Below are positions 3,897-50,326 of a DNA stretch of 64,000 bases, one piece after another. This DNA is from a virus (lineage: Duplodnaviria; Caudoviricetes). Location: the IMG/VR virus record IMGVR_UViG_3300031994_000061, positions 1 to 64,000 of that record, one strand, 5' to 3'. The notes under the pieces are model-generated. The model was not told where the DNA came from. It was given only the letters and a program-made list of their open reading frames with translations, and ran no database searches. Both the position numbers and the translations under genes were made by a program. Every line of letters begins with the position of its first letter. Position 1 is the stretch's first letter.

Positions 3897-3986
3897 GCGT
3901 CGGTGGTGGAATGGTGTACACATCAGACTTAAAATCTGACAGATGCCGTCAAAAGCGTCTTGCGGGTTCGACCCCCGCCCGACGTA
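3897..3986 (+). tRNA. tRNA-Leu (UAA), CCA not encoded
   Basis: acceptor GCGTCGG/CCGACGT; anticodon arm TCAGA-CTTAAAA-TCTGA; long variable arm; T arm GCGGG-TTCGACC-CCCGC; discriminator A. Confidence 0.92.
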
Positions 3987-4079
3987 CTAAAAAATGTTAA
4001 AAGATTGAGAGAACTTATGGTTTTCTCAATTTTTTTGTGTAACTTTGCACCATGTTAAACAACTTAATTTTTTTCAATT

Positions 4080-34342: not shown

Positions 34343-34794
34343 TGAAACAGATTATAAGGTTAACAGAGAGTGACCTTCACCAGCTTGTGAAGGAATCTGT
34401 ACAGAAGATATTGAGAGAAAGGTGGTATCCAAGTGAGGAAGATGACATATCAGACTACTCATATGGCTCTATCATGAAAATGGAAGTCGGTGGTTATCTT
34501 GATGAACTTGCTCCAGAGATTATACAAACTCTCCAGTCAGTAAAAGACGAGAATATTGAGTCAGAGCAGAGCTATGTATCGGTATTGGTTAGAAACGTAC
34601 AGCTCACACGTGATGAGCATGGGTTTGTAAACATCATAATAGAAGTTGCAGTATCAGCACCTAATATGCCTACTAACGACATTGAGGAAGAGGCTAAGGA
34701 ACAGGTATGGCTTTGGTTTGAAAACAAGACTGGTGAGAGGATAACCAATCTTTCAATAGTTGATGAAGAAGATGTTTTTGACAGAAGAGGATAA
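34342..34794 (+). CDS. putative internal head protein (MKQIIRLTESDLH leader)
   Basis: leader nearly identical to that of 45885-46166. Confidence 0.65.
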   Translation: MKQIIRLTESDLHQLVKESVQKILRERWYPSEEDDISDYSYGSIMKMEVGGYLDELAPEIIQTLQSVKDENIESEQSYVSVLVRNVQLTRDEHGFVNIIIEVAVSAPNMPTNDIEEEAKEQVWLWFENKTGERITNLSIVDEEDVFDRRG

Positions 34795-34987
34795 AAAGAA
34801 AAGAGTTAAGGTCACTCCTTAACTCTTTTTTCTTATCATTACGATTGTATTTACTTTTGTCTTTATAAGCACGGTTCATAGAAACAAATTGACCGCCACC
34901 ATAACGTTCAAGCTGTTCGTTACGGCTTATCATTCTCAGTATCTTATACTGTTCAGTGCTCTTAGTTGGTTTACTTTTTTTACACAT
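34694..34987 (-). CDS. ArfA/BrfA-like small basic protein; reading frame runs through a terminator
   Basis: SRNEQLERYG...NRAYKDKSKYNR basic motif; terminator at 34795-34834 precedes the stop at 34694; ATG 34987 overlaps the upstream stop. Confidence 0.55.
   Translation of the reverse strand: MCKKSKPTKSTEQYKILRMISRNEQLERYGGGQFVSMNRAYKDKSKYNRNDKKKELRSDLNSFLFILFCQKHLLHQLLKDWLSSHQSCFQTKAIPVP
34795..34834. terminator. bidirectional intrinsic terminator
   Basis: AAAAGAGTTAAGG-TCACT-CCTTAACTCTTTT flanked by A and T tracts. Confidence 0.88.
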
Positions 34988-35684
34988 CTTGAAATCCTCC
35001 ATCTTCTGTTAATATAAATGCTTTTCTGCAATCAAGGCAAGCCCACGTCTTTGTTATGACTGGGTGTTCTTCTTGCTGGGAATGACCGAAAACCTGGTAA
35101 ATACCATCAATATCTTCAGTATTCCCCTTTTCATTGATGTCTGACCACACCATGCTTCCAATTCTTCCCATACCACCTCTCTCACTAGAAACCTGTGTTA
35201 ATACCTCGATTCCCCTTTTAATGTCCTTGAGGTGATTTAGGTTTTCAACTGTGAGTTCTCCAATTAAGTCCTTATGTGCCTTATACCACGAGTTCAACAC
35301 ACCAGCATGTGTGAACAAGTATCTCTGCCCATTTATCATTTCCTCGTATGCCATATCAAACAGGCTCTTGTGTGAACGAAAATCCTCCTTAATGTGATAT
35401 GCATTACTTGAATCATATCTTGACCTTGTTCTGAAGTGGTCATCGTAGTAATGGAGGTCGTGGTTTCCAAGTAGGAGTATCACTTTATCTTTGTTATCCT
35501 GCTTGTATTTTATAATATCCTCGAAATTTCTTATTGCATCTTTCCTGGTTATAAATTCCCAAGGGTATGGGTCAAGGTAATCACCAAGGAATATTATTTT
35601 AGAGCACTCATCAGCGTGTTTTTCTATGGCATCTTTCCAGAATGTACGACCATGTACATCTGGGATTATTAATATTTTACTCAT
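34980..35684 (-). CDS. calcineurin-like metallophosphoesterase
   Basis: DVHG, GDYLD, GNHD, THAG, GHS. Confidence 0.9.
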   Translation of the reverse strand: MSKILIIPDVHGRTFWKDAIEKHADECSKIIFLGDYLDPYPWEFITRKDAIRNFEDIIKYKQDNKDKVILLLGNHDLHYYDDHFRTRSRYDSSNAYHIKEDFRSHKSLFDMAYEEMINGQRYLFTHAGVLNSWYKAHKDLIGELTVENLNHLKDIKRGIEVLTQVSSERGGMGRIGSMVWSDINEKGNTEDIDGIYQVFGHSQQEEHPVITKTWACLDCRKAFILTEDGGFQDV

Positions 35685-37600: not shown

Positions 37601-37912
37601 TTATTCCTCCTCTTCACCCTTTAAAGTACTGTTTATAAGGTCTACCAAATCTTTAAGAGGTACGTTACCAAGAACCTTGTATATTGGTTTATCGTTTTCA
37701 TCGAACAGTATTGTCGTTGGAATCGACTTAATGCCAAGTTTCTCAACTAATGGTTGCATATCTACATCCTTTTCAATATCGATTGCCTCAAATGTAATAT
37801 CCTTGAAGTCTTCCATTTCACTCACCTTCTTGAATGTTGAGGCATATGTGCGGCATGGAGCACACCATGTAGCACTAAATTTTAATACTTTCTTTGTTCT
37901 GTTTGTATTCAT
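37601..37912 (-). CDS. trxA: thioredoxin
   Basis: FSATWCAPC active site; IKSIPT cis-Pro loop. Confidence 0.9.
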   Translation of the reverse strand: MNTNRTKKVLKFSATWCAPCRTYASTFKKVSEMEDFKDITFEAIDIEKDVDMQPLVEKLGIKSIPTTILFDENDKPIYKVLGNVPLKDLVDLINSTLKGEEEE

Positions 37913-39702
37913 CTTCTTCCTATCTTAATTTTTTTCTTATTTTTAAATATATCATTGAACGAATTAATTGTCCTGGTTGAGTTAATGTTTATGGTTGAAC
38001 TTGATGAAATCTTCTTCTCAACTGGCTTTGCGTTGGCTATGATAGCTCTTGCTGAACTCTCGTTGATGATTGTCTTCGTTGTTTTACCAAGAATCCTGTT
38101 TACCTGGTATTCTATTCTTGCAAGTGCTGATGTGCTATTTGCACTATTTGTATCAAAACTATCGAAATCCTTCTCATCAATGAAACCAAGCACGTCTTTT
38201 GCCCTAGTGTAGGCAACATACATGAGGTTGGTTTCTTGTTGAATTTCCCAGTCCTTCTGAGCAGCCTTACTAGGCATTAGTGATGGACACACGATAAACA
38301 CCCTGTTAGCTTCAAGTCCCTTAGCTTTATGTACCGTTGAAAGTGCTATACCCTCTCCCTTGTCACCCTTTGGAAATATCTCATCTATTTTCTTAATAAG
38401 TTCCTCTGTCTTATTAATGCCTTCAGAGAGAATCTCCAGTGCCTTGATGATATCCAGTTTATTCTCGATTAGAGGGTTTTTTAAGGCTGTCTGAGCGTCT
38501 ATTCCAGACCTTACCATAATGTTATTCCTAGTGATAAATAAATCGTCGTAGAGCCTTACAAATAAGCCATCCTTTCTACAATCAACATTTATCTCATCCT
38601 GTTTCATACTCATCACGAGCGTCTTAAGATTTTTACCAATTTCCTTACCCCTAATAAATGCTTTTTTACCAAGCTTTAGAAATTCGTTATAGACTTGTAC
38701 AAGAGGTGCATTATTTCTACACAGTATCATATCTCCATCCTCTACCATATCCAGAGGAACGTCATATAGTATTTTACCTTCTCTGCCACCAGCTTCATTC
38801 CATTCGATTGATGGGACAATGGTTCTGGCGTGTTCTACTATGCTCTTTCCACACCTGTATGAAATACTAAGCGGTAAACATACGGTATTAGGAATTGACT
38901 TAAGAGTATTGAATGATTCTGGGTCGCCACCTGCAAACGAATATAACATCTGGTTTGTATCACCTACGGATATAAGTCTAGTACCCATCTTAAAGCACTT
39001 CAATACAAGCTCTCTCTCAGCTCTATTCATATCCTGGCACTCATCTACCATAATGTAGTCAAACAGAAGTCCAAATGGCTTTAAGTAAAGCACATTAGGC
39101 AACCATATCATATCGACATAATCTATATGGTCAAGTACATGCTTTCCCCATTCCATAATCTTGATTGCAACTGCCTTCTCATCCGCAAACGTTTCGATAC
39201 CATATCTCGCCTCAATGAAATCTAAGTCCTTCTCAGTCTGACACAGGTAATATCTACCAAAGTCAACATACTTAGCTACGTTGTTTATGTATCTAAAGTA
39301 ATCCTTAGATGATATTCTTCTCAGATTGATTGTAGTATAGTCCTTTATATTGTTTCTTATGTGAGAGATATACTTATATTCATCTGGATTTCCTCCAATC
39401 TGTCCTGGGAAATTCTTATTAAGCATTGCAAGACCAACACCATGAAGCGTCTTCACTAGCACATTGCTGAATTTTTTCGTTTTCTTCTGTAATTCAGTTA
39501 CAATATCCCTATTGAATGCTGTCATGAGAACCTGTTTGTCTTCTGGTATTAGTTCTAAACACTTCACTAGTGTTGTTGTTTTTCCAGCACCAGCAGCGGC
39601 TTCTACTACAATGTGACCGTTTCCATGAAGAATCTGGTCAAATATGGCTGATTGATATTTGCTAGGTGTAAAATCATCTGTTACTTTTTTCTTTCTTCCC
39701 AT
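37909..39702 (-). CDS. UvrD/Rep-like superfamily 1 helicase (second paralog)
   Basis: AAAGAGKTT, DECQD, GDTNQ, STVHKAKGLE, YVAYTRAK; start moved to MGRKKK after promoter 39719. Confidence 0.92.
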   Translation of the reverse strand: MGRKKKVTDDFTPSKYQSAIFDQILHGNGHIVVEAAAGAGKTTTLVKCLELIPEDKQVLMTAFNRDIVTELQKKTKKFSNVLVKTLHGVGLAMLNKNFPGQIGGNPDEYKYISHIRNNIKDYTTINLRRISSKDYFRYINNVAKYVDFGRYYLCQTEKDLDFIEARYGIETFADEKAVAIKIMEWGKHVLDHIDYVDMIWLPNVLYLKPFGLLFDYIMVDECQDMNRAERELVLKCFKMGTRLISVGDTNQMLYSFAGGDPESFNTLKSIPNTVCLPLSISYRCGKSIVEHARTIVPSIEWNEAGGREGKILYDVPLDMVEDGDMILCRNNAPLVQVYNEFLKLGKKAFIRGKEIGKNLKTLVMSMKQDEINVDCRKDGLFVRLYDDLFITRNNIMVRSGIDAQTALKNPLIENKLDIIKALEILSEGINKTEELIKKIDEIFPKGDKGEGIALSTVHKAKGLEANRVFIVCPSLMPSKAAQKDWEIQQETNLMYVAYTRAKDVLGFIDEKDFDSFDTNSANSTSALARIEYQVNRILGKTTKTIINESSARAIIANAKPVEKKISSSSTININSTRTINSFNDIFKNKKKIKIGRR

Positions 39703-39749
39703 TATCTTTGTTTTTATGCAAAGATATATAAAAAATATTAAAAAACAAA

Positions 39750-39787
39750 ATAAACGGGCTAGAAACTTATCTAACCCGTTCATTTTT
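39750..39787 (-). terminator. intrinsic terminator
   Basis: AACGGG...CCCGTT stem with A tract on the + strand. Confidence 0.6.
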
Positions 39788-39802: not shown

Positions 39803-40597
39803 TTAACCCTCCTGGAAGATGTCCTTCAAGTAGTTGCGCAGGTGAGGATTCTTCTCAAGCGTCTGCTTGATTTTGTCCTTCAGCTGTACTACTGAGGGGT
39901 CGATGGCTACGCCTCTGCCCTCACGAGCTGCACGAACCTCGTTCATACGTCTGTCCTTGTCCTCAAGGAAACGAACGAGCTGCTCACGGCTTGCACCCTC
40001 TACGTCAATCTCGGTGTCCCAAAGCTTGGTCTGGATGATGTCTACCAGCTGCTCACGCTCCATGCTTGCGAATGGAAGCTGCTGGCTCTGACCCTGTGGA
40101 GCTGGCTGCGGATTGCGTGGCCAAGGTCTGAAACGACCATCTGCACCACGAGGCTGGATACCAACTGGTGGTACAGGCTCTGCTCCCTGGCGATGGAAAT
40201 CATCGTACAATCCACCTGGATGAGGCATTCCACCTGGGCGAGGAGCACCGCATGGACGAGGAGGGAATGGGCGACCCTGTGGTGTACGACCCTGTGGCTG
40301 ACCGCCTACTGGAGGTACTGGAGCACCGTTCTCCATTGCAAGGGGTGACTCTTCGATTGGCTTAATCTCCAGAACATTACCAGTTGCAATGAGCAACTTT
40401 GCGAAAGTGGTAAGGGTAATCTCACCATTACCGTCGAGAATCTGCGCCAACTCGCCCTCAGAAATGGCAAGTGCGTATGCCAACTCGCTACGAGAAGTGT
40501 TAACCTCCTGCATGAACTGAGACATCTTACTGCGGATGTCATTCTTCGCCTGGCGAACCCACTCGCTGGCCGATGCTTGTAAAATTTGTCTATTCAT
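39803..40597 (-). CDS. XRE-type HTH protein with Pro/Gly/Gln-rich low-complexity linker
   Basis: SRSELAYALAISEGELAQILDG...ITLTTFAKL HTH; PPVGGQPQGR-type repeats. Confidence 0.7.
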   Translation of the reverse strand: MNRQILQASASEWVRQAKNDIRSKMSQFMQEVNTSRSELAYALAISEGELAQILDGNGEITLTTFAKLLIATGNVLEIKPIEESPLAMENGAPVPPVGGQPQGRTPQGRPFPPRPCGAPRPGGMPHPGGLYDDFHRQGAEPVPPVGIQPRGADGRFRPWPRNPQPAPQGQSQQLPFASMEREQLVDIIQTKLWDTEIDVEGASREQLVRFLEDKDRRMNEVRAAREGRGVAIDPSVVQLKDKIKQTLEKNPHLRNYLKDIFQEG

Positions 40598-40693: not shown

Positions 40694-41944
40694 TTAATAT
40701 AAATGATAAGCTTTCTTTCTAATACTGATTAGTAAATCATCTACGAACCTCTCGTCGATTTTGGCTGGAATTGTTGACTCAGCAATAGCCTTGTCAAGCT
40801 CTTCCTTATCCTCATCAACGATTGCCATTAGTTCATCATATTCGAACTTATGATTTCTGACATCCATCAAGAACTCCCTGTCACCAGCTTCACGTCTGTC
40901 AAGAATAAGTCCCTTACCCTCTGCAATCTCTCTACCCATTCTCATAAGTCTGATACAGTGCATCATGTTCTTTGAGTCATAGTTCTTATCGAGATTTGAT
41001 TCATAACGCTTCGGGTTGCGGTTCTGTTCCCACTCCTTGTACTCCTTATACTTCTTGCAGTGGTCTTGGAAACCACTCTCGTTGTATACCATATGAACAA
41101 GAGGTTTTTCTCCTTTTGATACAGAAGAACCACGCATATCAGTAGCTTGGTCAAGGCACATACCACGATAATGCTTTACAACCTTATTCTCTTCGAACCA
41201 CTTGTTGAAAGTATTCCAGTTGGTTAATTCATACTTGAAGACGATAAAGTGAGACAAACGTCCAAGCTCATCACCACTAACAGTATCACTTGAATAACCG
41301 TTAAACAGCATTTCAGCAGTAATACCTTTAGCCTTGAAATGAGCACCGAAGTCATAGTATACACCATAGGTATCGTGCATGTTAGGAATATGTACAAGTC
41401 CGCAGAAGTCCTTCTCAAGTCCACGATTCCACAGCCAATCCTTTATCTTGGTGCTACCCTGGTTGTAGAAGGTATATGCAAAGTCATAAGGAGTAAGACG
41501 CTCTGTTACTGGATTCACAATCTTCTTGTTCAATCCACGAGCCTTCTTAATCTGCATGACAGCATAACCCACGAACGGGTTGAAACACTGTTTGGTGATG
41601 AACTTATCCTTGTTCTCAAAGAGTTCAGCAAGGATTGGAGAAGGCTTAGTGAGAATCTTGTCTTCTGGAACAAACAGTGATTCGATAATGCTAGGGTTAG
41701 ACTTCATAAGCATATGCATATACTTGCGAAGCTCATACCATGTATTATCATTCTTTGCATCCGCAACAAGCTCCTGGTATCCAAGACCGATACCAAGTAG
41801 GGTATTGTGAGGTGCAATGAAGAGTCCACTGCTATCAACGTCTGAATCCTGGTTATTCAGACCATAGAGGTGAGAACCCCTCACATACTCGTAGAGGAGT
41901 CTACCGTCTTCTCTGATTTTATCGAAATTAGTCTTCATCTTCAA
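40694..41944 (-). CDS. predicted nucleotidyltransferase (Pol-beta superfamily)
   Basis: RGSHLYGL...SDVD (GS...DxD), KSNPSIIE, KNMMHCIRL. Confidence 0.88.
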   Translation of the reverse strand: MKMKTNFDKIREDGRLLYEYVRGSHLYGLNNQDSDVDSSGLFIAPHNTLLGIGLGYQELVADAKNDNTWYELRKYMHMLMKSNPSIIESLFVPEDKILTKPSPILAELFENKDKFITKQCFNPFVGYAVMQIKKARGLNKKIVNPVTERLTPYDFAYTFYNQGSTKIKDWLWNRGLEKDFCGLVHIPNMHDTYGVYYDFGAHFKAKGITAEMLFNGYSSDTVSGDELGRLSHFIVFKYELTNWNTFNKWFEENKVVKHYRGMCLDQATDMRGSSVSKGEKPLVHMVYNESGFQDHCKKYKEYKEWEQNRNPKRYESNLDKNYDSKNMMHCIRLMRMGREIAEGKGLILDRREAGDREFLMDVRNHKFEYDELMAIVDEDKEELDKAIAESTIPAKIDERFVDDLLISIRKKAYHLY

Positions 41945-42731
41945 ATTTAATTAACTTATCAATGTAATTTCTATCCTCACCCTTAAGGATTGGCATTTCG
42001 TAGTCAATAACCCACTTTTCACCTTTCTTGACAACTGCTGTGCCACGTTTCTCTGGAACGGTAAGGTTATTCCAGTTGATGCCGAAATTATCCATTAGCA
42101 TATCCTGCATCTGGCTTGAGTTCTTTCCATGTAGTTGCCTATATGAGAACTTGGACTGTGCCAGTGAAGAAATAGAGTTACGTGTAGCATCCTGTTGTCT
42201 CCAGAGAACACAGTTAGTTACTTCCTCAACAGGAGTGTTGAACACACGTGCATCGAACATTGCTCCTTTGTTAATAGCTTTTTCATAAACAGAGTTTAGC
42301 TTATGTGCATTTTCATCAACTTCAACATTGGCGAATGTCCCTAAGAACCATTCAGAATACGCCTTCTCGAATTCCTGGTTGAAATACAGTGTACACATAG
42401 AAGCAGCCACAGAACATATCTTCTGAGTACTGTAATCAAACCAAGCATTTGTGTCAAGCGTCTCATAGTCAATCAGAATAAGTGTAATCTCATCCGACTG
42501 AGTATAACCAAACACACAACCCTGGATATTCTCGCACAACCTCAGAGTTGTCTGCTGCATTGCTTTCATCATCACCTTATCAAATGGTTTATCGAAACCA
42601 CGTGTAAAGGTGTGGAATGCCTTACCATCCAGTCTAATGATGACTGGCATACGTCTTACGAGATAAGTCTTAGCTCTGTTCTCGTAGTTATTTTTCATCC
42701 TGTCTCCCAGACTATCTCTCTTATTTGCCAT
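41928..42731 (-). CDS. thg1: tRNA-His guanylyltransferase Thg1-like protein
   Basis: IRLDGKAFH, YTQSDEI, FDAR, WRQQDATRNSI. Confidence 0.92.
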   Translation of the reverse strand: MANKRDSLGDRMKNNYENRAKTYLVRRMPVIIRLDGKAFHTFTRGFDKPFDKVMMKAMQQTTLRLCENIQGCVFGYTQSDEITLILIDYETLDTNAWFDYSTQKICSVAASMCTLYFNQEFEKAYSEWFLGTFANVEVDENAHKLNSVYEKAINKGAMFDARVFNTPVEEVTNCVLWRQQDATRNSISSLAQSKFSYRQLHGKNSSQMQDMLMDNFGINWNNLTVPEKRGTAVVKKGEKWVIDYEMPILKGEDRNYIDKLIKFEDED

Positions 42732-43404
42732 TTTTCTTCTTGATTATTAATGTTGAATCACTATAGTTTATCATTATATCTCCAAACCGACTGAGCATTT
42801 TTTGTCCAAATAATGGAGAATCATCAGCACTACCACCTTCTGGGTCTGATGTACATTTGACAGAATCTATCCTAATACCAGTCAGTTCCACTGATTTAAG
42901 CAGATATTCTACGCACTCATGTTCTTTTCCATCAGCATAGATACATGTTGCTGTCCCTACAGGTTTCTTAGAATCAAGTAACCCCTGGTGTTCTAGGAAT
43001 AAAACCTCTACTGGTGTTAGGTGTATATCAGCACATCCAGTATCAAGTAAAAAACGCATTTCAACTCCATTAATCTTTGGTCTGATATACATCATATTAT
43101 TGCTGATTTCAAGTTTTATCTTGATTGTATTCTCAACCTCTGGAGTTGGAATCTCTTGCTCTGGCAATGTGTCATTGACGATACCTATGTTGGTAAGTCC
43201 TTCATTAGCTTCCTGTTTAATTCTTTGTAAGCTGAAAGCTTCTGCAACCCTGTTATAAGCAGTATCCTTATATTCGGTAAGTTTCTCTCCAACCCTGTCG
43301 ATTGCTGCTGGTCCACCAACAACAAACACGAAAGAGATACACACGACTAGTATAAGAACCAGAAGTATCTTAATACTCTTGAATAAACAACCCTTATTTT
43401 TCAT
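42721..43404 (-). CDS. membrane-anchored retropepsin-like aspartic protease
   Basis: N-terminal transmembrane helix; FLLDTGC; PLFGQKML flap-like motif. Confidence 0.8.
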   Translation of the reverse strand: MKNKGCLFKSIKILLVLILVVCISFVFVVGGPAAIDRVGEKLTEYKDTAYNRVAEAFSLQRIKQEANEGLTNIGIVNDTLPEQEIPTPEVENTIKIKLEISNNMMYIRPKINGVEMRFLLDTGCADIHLTPVEVLFLEHQGLLDSKKPVGTATCIYADGKEHECVEYLLKSVELTGIRIDSVKCTSDPEGGSADDSPLFGQKMLSRFGDIMINYSDSTLIIKKKNGK

Positions 43405-47839: not shown

Positions 47840-50326
47840 TTACTTGATTTCAATCTGGTCGTTTAAGCATGACGCACTGAATACGTAGTTTATTGGATAT
47901 TCATTTGTCAACATGAGGTCTGTAATCTTATCCTCAAGGCTCGTCTGGATAAGTCTGATGATTGGTCTAGCACCGAATTCCTTAGACTTAAGAGCTTCAG
48001 CATGAATGCATGTAACTACATCATCAGTATAAGTTATACTATATTCTAAGCTATTTAATCTCTTATTAAACTTATTAATTTCCAATTTAACTATATCCTT
48101 AAGATTATCATCTGATAAACTATTGAAGTATACTATTTGGTCCAATCTATTTATAAATTCTGGTGTAAATTTCTTCTTGAGTTCCTTATCAATAATAGAC
48201 TTCTTATTAGCTTCTTCACTGTTTACAAATCCTACTCCATTTCCAAGCTCTGCTGCCTTTCTAGCACCAATGTTGGATGTCATGAGTACGATGACGTTCT
48301 TGAAGTTTACAATCTGTCCAGAGCTGTCTGTAAGTCTACCTTCATCGAACAACTGGAGGAATATGTTATATACTTCCTGGTCAGCCTTCTCAATCTCATC
48401 AAGTAGCAATACACAGTGTTGTTTGTGCTTAACCTGTTCTGTCAGTTGTCCACCATTCTCATATCCCACATATCCAGGAGCAGCACCAGTTAGTTTCGCT
48501 ACTGAGTTTTTCTCTGAATACTCAGACATATCGATTCTGATAAGTGCTTTTTCATCACCGAATATCTCTTCAGCAAGTTTCTTTGCAATGAGTGTTTTAC
48601 CAGAACCAGTAGGTCCTACCATCAAAATATTGGCAAGTGTCTTGGACTTATCACCAAGTCCTACCTTATTTCTCTTGATAACCCTACAAACACTATCAAC
48701 AGCCTCATCCTGTCCAATAACGCTCTCCTTAAGAATCTTGTCGATGTTGGCTATCTTGGCTTTCTCACTCACTGACAGTTTGCTTACAGGTATCTTAGTC
48801 ATTTCAGAAACCACATCAGCAATATTGTCTTCAGTGATTTCTATTGTATCTATCTTTAGTTTCTTAATATCCCTCTTGTAGTCTGCCATATCAGATGCTA
48901 GGACGTTTTCCTCGATTGTAAGGGAGTCTATGAGTTCAAAGTCACCGTTGTTAAGAGCATTGTACTTTTCTGCCTCTATTTCCCTCATTCTCTTTTTCGT
49001 GTTCTGTATCTCTACTGGTTCTCTCTCCAGAAGTGATGTGCTAGCACCAGCGAGGTCGATAATATCAAACGCTGAGTCTGGAAGGCATCTATCTGTAACG
49101 TACCTATCAGCAAGTTCTACAGCTTTCTTAATAGTTTTCTCATCGTATGAAACCCTGTGGAACTGCTCGTAATATCTTTTATTATTCTCAAGTATTTCTA
49201 TTGATTCTTCAACAGTATTAGGCTCAATAATAATCTTCTGTAATTTTCTTGATATTGATGTATTATTCTCGATAGAGTTCCTGTAGTCCTTGAATGTTGT
49301 TGTACCTATAATCTTAAGTTTACCCTCTGACAATGCATTACTAATCATTCCAGAAATATCAGTGTCTTTATCCTTACTTCCATTTTTGAGTACATTGTGC
49401 ATGTCATCAATGAAAAGGATATATTTATCAGAAGCTTGCAATTCAGTGAATAAACCATTTATTCTCTCTTCAAACATACCTCTGAAGTGTGTTCCACTTA
49501 CCAATGCCATTATGTTGAGGAGTACGATTTCCTTACCTTCGAGTATGGATGGTACTTTTCCAGCTTCTATGAGACTTGCAAGTCCATATACGATTGCTGT
49601 CTTACCACAACCTCCACGACCAACCAATACGGCATTATTTTTCTTTCTCCTAGATAATGTTTTTATGATTTCCTTGATTTCACTCTCTCTTCCAACAATA
49701 TCATCAATTTCACCGTTTCTAGCCATCTTGTTGATACTGATGGTGTACTTGGATATGAAATCATCTGTTAGACTTGAAACAGGCTTTGCATTAACCTGGC
49801 TCTTGAGAGGTATTGCAGCCGATTTTGTTTTCAGACTCTTAGGAGATTTACTTTCTGTTTTATCTTTCTTCGGTACATCACACTTATTCTGTATGAACTC
49901 ATACTCAAGTCTGAACTTTTCAAACACTTCTGAGTTCTTGAAACCATATTCCTTATTTAATACAGCTAACAGGACATGTTCTGTACCTATTTCTACATTC
50001 TTCAACTTATCTCTTTCTTTCTTGGCACATTCAAGAAGCCTAACAAGCTCATCACTGAATTTTATCTCTCCAACCAAACTTACTTGAGGGTTAACATGAG
50101 TTTCAATTGCAGACTCATATACTTTCTTAAGTTCCTCAAGATTGTTTGACATGAGACAATTGTCAAGAATAAGATTTGCATGACAGTTCCTTATGTCCAG
50201 TATTGACAGAATAAGATACTCTGGAGTCAGTATGTCCGTAGGGAACATGCCAGGAAGTGTGTTAGACATATACTCCAACACATCATTCAATTCTAAAGTG
50301 TAAGTGTTATCTTTCTTTCTACTCAT
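47840..50326 (-). CDS. clpC: ClpC-like Hsp100 ATP-dependent chaperone
   Basis: N-domain repeats; NBD1 GRGGCGKT; UVR-like coil; NBD2 GPTGSGKT, DMSEYSEK, LLDEIEKA; VGF loop. Confidence 0.9.
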   Translation of the reverse strand: MSRKKDNTYTLELNDVLEYMSNTLPGMFPTDILTPEYLILSILDIRNCHANLILDNCLMSNNLEELKKVYESAIETHVNPQVSLVGEIKFSDELVRLLECAKKERDKLKNVEIGTEHVLLAVLNKEYGFKNSEVFEKFRLEYEFIQNKCDVPKKDKTESKSPKSLKTKSAAIPLKSQVNAKPVSSLTDDFISKYTISINKMARNGEIDDIVGRESEIKEIIKTLSRRKKNNAVLVGRGGCGKTAIVYGLASLIEAGKVPSILEGKEIVLLNIMALVSGTHFRGMFEERINGLFTELQASDKYILFIDDMHNVLKNGSKDKDTDISGMISNALSEGKLKIIGTTTFKDYRNSIENNTSISRKLQKIIIEPNTVEESIEILENNKRYYEQFHRVSYDEKTIKKAVELADRYVTDRCLPDSAFDIIDLAGASTSLLEREPVEIQNTKKRMREIEAEKYNALNNGDFELIDSLTIEENVLASDMADYKRDIKKLKIDTIEITEDNIADVVSEMTKIPVSKLSVSEKAKIANIDKILKESVIGQDEAVDSVCRVIKRNKVGLGDKSKTLANILMVGPTGSGKTLIAKKLAEEIFGDEKALIRIDMSEYSEKNSVAKLTGAAPGYVGYENGGQLTEQVKHKQHCVLLLDEIEKADQEVYNIFLQLFDEGRLTDSSGQIVNFKNVIVLMTSNIGARKAAELGNGVGFVNSEEANKKSIIDKELKKKFTPEFINRLDQIVYFNSLSDDNLKDIVKLEINKFNKRLNSLEYSITYTDDVVTCIHAEALKSKEFGARPIIRLIQTSLEDKITDLMLTNEYPINYVFSASCLNDQIEIK

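Follow-up and report, generated by a model that had tools for sequence, protein, structure and literature searches.

How is a gene expressed when its reading frame runs straight through a transcription terminator, and what might such a gene encode? The locus that raises this question lies in a window of 64,000 nucleotides, the whole stretch of DNA analyzed here, which is part of an 85.9-kb IMG/VR record (~29% complete) from a phage related to the Prevotella Lak megaphages, with a phosphoesterase ~40% identical to theirs. A sequence-only reading of the window had singled out one small ORF as a candidate ribosome-rescue factor, made, like ArfA of Escherichia coli and BrfA of Bacillus subtilis, from an mRNA without a stop codon. 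Having compared the gene with its relatives in phages and bacteria, we estimate a probability of roughly 0.55 that the small protein is the tmRNA-gated product of a non-stop mRNA and a rescue factor of the ArfA/BrfA type with an independent origin. This reading draws on analogy with those two factors together with the size, charge, and distribution of the protein.

The small basic ORF described in the sequence-only reading, predicted to yield ~64 residues, is present where it was placed, as is its coupling to a phosphoesterase gene (Table 1). Within the string ATGTGTAA, its ATG and the TAA of the upstream metallophosphoesterase gene overlap. A second in-frame ATG at 35002 would lengthen the ORF by five codons; we assign the start to 34987 because the relatives begin at the Met that precedes K-S-K-P-T-K. 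The small gene is the last of a leftward transcription unit whose order is UvrD-like helicase, thioredoxin, dNMP kinase, two metallophosphoesterases, and small gene. This unit probably starts at an intergenic terminator located 17 nt beyond the stop codon of ORF 39803..40597. That terminator also overlaps the listed ATG of the UvrD-like helicase, the true start of which is probably a downstream Met before G-R-K-K-K.

Table 1. Positions in the window of the small ORF, its terminator, and neighboring features
Feature	Position	Strand	Remarks
Small ORF	34987..34694	minus	97 codons; ATG 34987, TAG 34696-34694
Conserved coding part, codons 1-65	34793..34987	minus	reaches the end of the T-run
ORF remainder past terminator	34694..34792	minus	33 codons + TAG; unconserved
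Bidirectional intrinsic terminator inside small ORF	34793..34835	both	hairpin + T-run + A-run
Upstream metallophosphoesterase	35684..34980	minus	PF00149, E 1.9e-9
Convergent ORF, 150 aa	34342..34794	plus	without family match; TAA 34792-34794 abuts hairpin
Convergent gene, 462 aa	32954-34342	plus	33-69% identity across phage clade
UvrD-like helicase ORF	37909..39783	minus	as listed
Intergenic terminator	39747..39786	minus	17-bp stem + T-run
RlaP-type nucleotidyltransferase (PF10127) and adjoining Thg1-like tRNA-His guanylyltransferase (PF04446)	40694-42731	minus	
Retropepsin-like aspartyl protease domain protein	42721-43404	minus	same leftward block
ClpB-like double AAA+ ATPase	47840-50326	minus	828 aa; same leftward block
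tRNA-Leu(TAA)	3897-3987	plus	only tRNA in window

Further upstream on the same strand, beyond the intergenic terminator, the RlaP-type and Thg1-like genes form a pair that suggests phage tRNA or RNA repair, which the sequence-only reading proposed the small protein might complement, and the same leftward block holds the ClpB-like ATPase and the retropepsin-like protein. On the convergent side, the 150-aa ORF is poorly conserved among relatives, and the 462-aa gene has weak matches at its N terminus to DUF5856 and to a PHROG annotated as a starvation-inducible regulator. An alternative genetic code was considered and set aside: the window fits code 11, and treating TAG as a sense codon adds little. 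Recoding is no answer to the non-stop layout in any case, since it would merely lengthen the small ORF.

That the frame passes through a strong terminator before its stop, the central observation of the earlier reading, is borne out. The stem pairs 34829-34817 with 34811-34799 (13-15 bp) around a loop at 34816-34812; a minus-strand T-run at 34802-34793 follows it, and an A-run at 34830-34835 precedes it, forming the T-run of the plus strand, so that a terminator scan calls the element on both strands. The hairpin has a folding energy of -21.8 kcal/mol (z -4.8), which is equalled in 0 of 200 shuffles. It is encoded by codons 53-65 of the small ORF (K-K-E-L-R-S-D-L-N-S-F-L-F), and the first in-frame stop comes 34 codons past it. 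From the sequence, a product of ~63-66 residues should result if transcription ends at the terminator. The remainder of the ORF, which is antisense to the 3' end of the convergent 150-aa ORF, is probably not translated.

As the plus-strand TAA lies directly against the hairpin, the element reads as a bidirectional terminator between two converging units. Its stem is maintained in the close phage clade by compensatory changes at 5 of 13 pairs, with both sides altered, one of which turns Asn into Ser and matches a silent change in the opposite arm. None of 500 shuffles equals the observed covariation, and the signal is gone when the partner is shifted by 1-3 columns. The convergent operon uses this hairpin as well, and that use could by itself account for conservation of the hairpin within the phage clade; it would not explain the missing stop codon. 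A ribosome close behind the polymerase could block folding of the hairpin and so allow transcriptional read-through.

Selection on the gene is evident from its relatives. Among 5.8 billion proteins searched, 204 are homologues of 61-106 residues at 76-97% identity, and a profile search of 1.84 billion representatives clustered at 50% added 83 more, of 32-116 residues. Over nine phage loci, dN/dS is ~0.06 (pN 0.058; pS 0.57, with synonymous sites near saturation). The small protein is 83-87% identical in phage relatives, against 39-91% for its neighbors, most of which it exceeds. Judged by these comparisons, the small ORF is a real gene on which strong purifying selection acts. Close homologues are carried by phage contigs that reach 412 kb, and the close phage clade keeps the succession of dNMP kinase, phosphoesterase 2, phosphoesterase 1, small gene, terminator, and convergent genes.

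The purifying selection applies to the part ahead of the terminator. The 120 close homologues among the matches listed share a common core of ~63 residues and then diverge completely, with 31 different lengths of 19-61 residues from the invariant Tyr to the ORF end; these tails are entirely unlike in sequence and length although the cores are 85-97% identical. In the Bacteroides clade, 40 different tail lengths occur. A strong in-frame hairpin with a T-run precedes the stop in 24 of 25 phage or metagenome loci, the hairpin beginning 1-23 nt past the Tyr codon and the stop following 2 to ~270 nt after, and the same layout is found in all five MAG loci.

These observations bear on a plainer explanation, namely that a terminator simply coincides with the 3' end of an ordinary small gene, with no link to trans-translation. 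Translation or incomplete termination would then yield enough full-length mRNA, and a variable tail would be tolerated. Compact phage genomes can have terminators that overlap the ends of genes, and in some relatives (loci L029 and L043) the stop lies just 2-6 nt beyond the T-run, as this explanation would have it. Against it stand the unconserved tails with their wide range of lengths and the finding that, in 120 of 120 close homologues among the matches listed, the ORF outruns the residues encoded by the hairpin, none stopping before its 3' arm. Within the window, moreover, the only other similarly strong hairpin within 20 kb, the intergenic terminator, sits after a stop codon. We regard an ordinary protein of this kind as improbable, and the bacterial relatives weigh further against it.

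The family is not confined to phages but is common in Bacteroidales chromosomes. Six-frame searches of genomes from Bacteroidales groups found a match in 33 of 401 genomes for the order, in 43 of 151 Tannerellaceae genomes with an improved profile, in 89 of 250 genomes of a Bacteroides-type genus, and in 8 of 108 Phocaeicola genomes. Carriers include Parabacteroides merdae, P. distasonis, P. faecis, P. chongii, and P. pacaensis; Bacteroides salyersiae, B. acidifaciens, B. oleiciplenus, and B. stercorirosoris; and Coprobacter fastidiosus, a Dysgonomonas species, and Xylanibacter oryzae. With few exceptions, carrier genomes have one copy, in many cases on a megabase contig, among ordinary metabolic genes that vary between genomes. 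By sequence, the phage copy is related to a gene family found in Bacteroidales chromosomes: the window protein is 52% identical to the copy of X. oryzae (Prevotellaceae) and 38% identical to that of P. merdae. These values fit capture from, or exchange with, a Prevotella-type host.

The chromosomal copies repeat the layout of the phage gene. The sequence-only reading had suggested looking for Bacteroidota homologs with in-frame terminators, and these were found at ~25 of 35 Bacteroidales chromosomal loci and at ~25 of 30 Tannerellaceae loci. They show a GC-rich in-frame hairpin, often on K-A and L-P codons, then a T-rich run and an unconserved tail. Stems of distant members have no sequence relation yet lie at the same position. 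Given unrelated stems and differing gene neighborhoods, neither genome compaction nor one shared terminator explains the layout, and its recurrence in chromosomes with ample intergenic space speaks against an ordinary protein that only happens to overlap a terminator. So do two bacterial ORFs that continue into the next gene: at two Tannerellaceae loci (L101:766-1659 and L103:1501-2397), the small ORF lacks its own stop and reads on in frame into what is by sequence a secreted cyclophilin-type isomerase, with the internal hairpin kept.

The same reading had named a stop ahead of the hairpin in homologs as a point that would count against it; the close homologues listed have no such stop, although not every family member shares the layout. 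An early stop with no internal terminator is found at about 10 of the 35 Bacteroidales loci and at L031, a metagenome locus. There is thus a conventionally expressed subfamily, and non-stop expression is not obligatory for the family. Members of this subfamily (L063, L067, L070, L073, L074, L078, L079, L089, and L031) have a short acidic tail, and they may be a constitutively made form. Separately, the full-length ORFs of six Tannerellaceae, Coprobacter, and Bacteroides copies (L055, L056, L090, L104, L105, and L106) end in ...LAA, ...PAA, ...VAA, or ...KAA. A general ssrA-like AA degron at the ORF end was rejected, as such an end occurs in just 3 of 119 Bacteroides-clade ORFs.

What kind of protein is so encoded? 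The family core consists of an N-terminal helix ending in S-R-x-E-x-x-x-E, a variable Gly-containing turn, and a stretch near H-K-N-K-K-K-Y-D-R-K. Within it, K-K-x-Y-[DN]-R-K is almost invariant; in window numbering, Arg22, Tyr47, and Arg49 are invariant, and Gly32 is nearly so. AlphaFold2, given a 55-sequence alignment (pLDDT 86.6), predicts a helix at residues 13-29, an extended segment at 30-48 that carries the Lys-rich Tyr/Arg motif, and a basic helix at 49-63. This model has no fold match (Foldseek E about 10; best VIA Z 2.5). The small protein has no significant match in Pfam, PHROGs, NCBIfam, or PDB sequences, of which NCBIfam also missed E. coli ArfA. A match to DUF7230, seen in Pfam at E 0.043 for 2 of 35 members and also suggested by a protein atlas, was not reproduced and was discarded. 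We found no description of the small-protein family in the literature, and databases label its members hypothetical proteins.

The turn invites one specific alternative. The window protein and most of the close phage clade contain G-G-G-Q followed by a basic tail, so that the protein could be imagined as a miniature ArfB-like hydrolase with its own GGQ (residues 31-33), releasing peptides without a release factor. Other clades, however, carry GGRW, DGKW, QGKW, HGHP, or SAGW at this place; only Gly32 is nearly invariant; and neither the window protein nor the family members match the RF-1 domain (PF00472). As GGQ is replaced in most family clades, these letters are not a catalytic motif, and we rejected a GGQ hydrolase, which we consider highly improbable. 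What the window protein has in common with the GGQ-domain rescue factors ArfB (YaeJ) and ICT1 is the letters GGQ and a basic C-terminal helix, which might sense a vacant mRNA channel. The small protein has no RF-1 domain, however, and its size is far below theirs; nor does ArfB come from a non-stop mRNA.

To our knowledge, ArfA and BrfA are the only two protein families known from deliberately stop-less messages, which confine their appearance to conditions in which trans-translation fails. ArfA recruits RF2 and sets off peptide release that needs no stop codon; BrfA is down-regulated through tmRNA and shows a synthetic defect with smpB. The E. coli arfA hairpin is chiefly an RNase III site, whereas the hairpin of the small ORF is by its appearance a terminator. 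With this difference, the ArfA gene (YhdL, PF03889; gamma- and betaproteobacteria), whose message is truncated at a hairpin within the ORF, has the same layout as the small gene by sequence. The hydrophobic tail of ArfA is unconserved and lies outside the active protein, and the tail of the small ORF is likewise unconserved; E. coli arfA converges on and overlaps mscL, and the small ORF similarly converges on and overlaps its neighbor. The Lys-rich segment of the small protein, with Tyr and Arg spaced as in ArfA, may correspond to the Lys/Gly-rich ArfA segment that lies in the mRNA channel; the predicted N-terminal helix of the small protein has no counterpart in ArfA.

The sequence-only reading had pointed to this Lys-rich segment as similar to the ArfA motif. 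An alignment does exist: hhalign pairs R-V-H-K-S-K-K-V-Y-N-R-K with R-V-E-K-N-K-K-G-K-G-S-Y-M-R-K of ArfA, placing K-K-x-Y-x-R-K against K-G-K-G-S-Y-M-R-K at 40% identity over 20 columns, but with a probability of 0.6% and an E value of 0.09. Across comparisons with E. coli ArfA and with a shallow ArfA alignment of Enterobacteriaceae only, hhalign probabilities were 0.3-0.6%, and BLASTP against ArfA found nothing. PF03889 was not matched at E values up to 10 by sets of 11 and 35 family members. We therefore treat the pairing with ArfA as a weak lead and not as evidence of homology.

The resemblance to BrfA (YqkK, B. subtilis; RF2-dependent) is also one of design. The brfA gene has a rho-independent terminator within the ORF, and its 62-residue product is tmRNA-tagged (PMC6881298), so that size and in-ORF terminator are both similar to what is seen here. 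Each protein combines a helical N-terminal part with a positively charged C-terminal part. BrfA belongs to the Bacillus group, whereas the small protein belongs to Bacteroidales and their huge phages, and the K-H motif common to ArfA and BrfA is not seen in the small protein. A relation to BrfA was assessed through profile searches of all PDB chains with two family profiles, and no rescue-factor chain was among the matches. The non-stop design is documented for arfA and brfA (PMC6881298), and reviews expect more such small factors, which are hard to find by sequence (PMC8012679). Although ArfA and BrfA already show this regulatory design, what is new is the protein family, together with its occurrence in this bacterial order and in phages.

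If the gene depends on tmRNA for its regulation, the tmRNA content of its carriers is of interest. A tmRNA above the Rfam threshold is present in all five complete genomes of the close phage clade (295-412 kb), and ARAGORN reads tags ending in ...YAMAA or ...YAIAA in three of the five. The tmRNA genes lie inside a tRNA cluster (L033, L035, and L037 in genomes G004, G003, and G005, respectively; also L034 and L036). None of the five encodes SmpB or a release factor. No tmRNA was found in the window's own record, which is ~29% complete, or in incomplete records of distant phages. The tmRNA genes of huge phages (PMC7162821) are likewise a phage-borne part of ribosome rescue; they supply the RNA of the primary pathway, however, and not a protein back-up. 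Lak-A1, Lak-B1, and Lak-C1 also carry tmRNA, and the small gene was not found in them. Co-occurrence of small gene and tmRNA is therefore a lineage trait and not a specific link, which weakens it as specific evidence.

In a 2025 transposon study, tmRNA and SmpB were dispensable in P. merdae and essential in Bacteroides uniformis and Phocaeicola vulgatus (bioRxiv 10.1101/2025.10.10.681549). Its authors detected neither an arfA nor an arfB homologue to account for this and suggest a rescue pathway of unknown nature; P. merdae carries the small-gene family. Nearly all of the 151 Tannerellaceae genomes have just two genes with an RF-1 domain, which implies that ArfB is absent from nearly all of them. 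The small gene was not detected in 100 of 108 Phocaeicola genomes, and P. vulgatus is not among the named positives. In a survey of >15,000 genomes, ArfA was restricted to Proteobacteria and the B. subtilis group (PMC11633108). We give even odds that this is a third independently evolved family of release factor-dependent rescue proteins, native to Bacteroidales, which would account for the tmRNA tolerance of P. merdae and would have been captured by tmRNA-carrying, Lak-like huge phages.

By analogy with ArfA and BrfA, we infer the following course of events. RNA polymerase would stop at the intrinsic terminator inside the reading frame and leave a message without a stop codon, at the 3' end of which ribosomes would stall. 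With the message ending at the internal terminator, the small protein would be tagged for degradation, by the tmRNA of the host or by one that the phage might itself encode, as its complete relatives do, and destroyed while trans-translation has spare capacity, building up only when that pathway is saturated or disabled. Its most likely task would then be to engage ribosomes whose mRNA channel is empty, using the K-K-x-Y-x-R-K segment and the basic helix at its C terminus, and to bring in a host release factor that frees the peptide.

The later steps of this scheme are where a different reading comes in. The small protein may be tmRNA-gated by its non-stop design and yet have a role other than rescue, as a sensor or effector of translation stress; it could be, for example, a ribosome-silencing factor, an RNA-binding protein, or a regulator of infection timing. 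All of the architectural evidence fits such a role equally well, the protein has no detectable homology to any rescue factor, and a subfamily with ordinary stops exists. On the other hand, this design is known only from rescue factors (PMC6881298, PMC8012679), a small protein with a Lys-rich Tyr/Arg segment suits binding in the mRNA channel, and P. merdae, where the family occurs and loss of tmRNA is tolerated with neither ArfA nor ArfB, shows what a rescue factor predicts. We therefore consider a role outside rescue unlikely, if less so than an ordinary protein, and favor a tmRNA-gated rescue factor.

The design of the gene itself, conserved with covariation over phages and bacteria, singles out a candidate in a phylum without a known one, and on comparative grounds this small gene of a giant gut or rumen phage is a strong candidate for a new rescue factor. 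If that is what it is, it would explain how P. merdae survives without tmRNA, and the presence of the gene in this species makes the question of tmRNA dispensability there directly testable. It would also be the first rescue protein encoded by a phage, and the non-stop-mRNA device that switches it on would be that of ArfA and BrfA. Giant phages would then bring with them, besides tmRNA, a protein back-up for ribosome rescue, useful when host defenses or phage takeover flood the cell with broken mRNAs.
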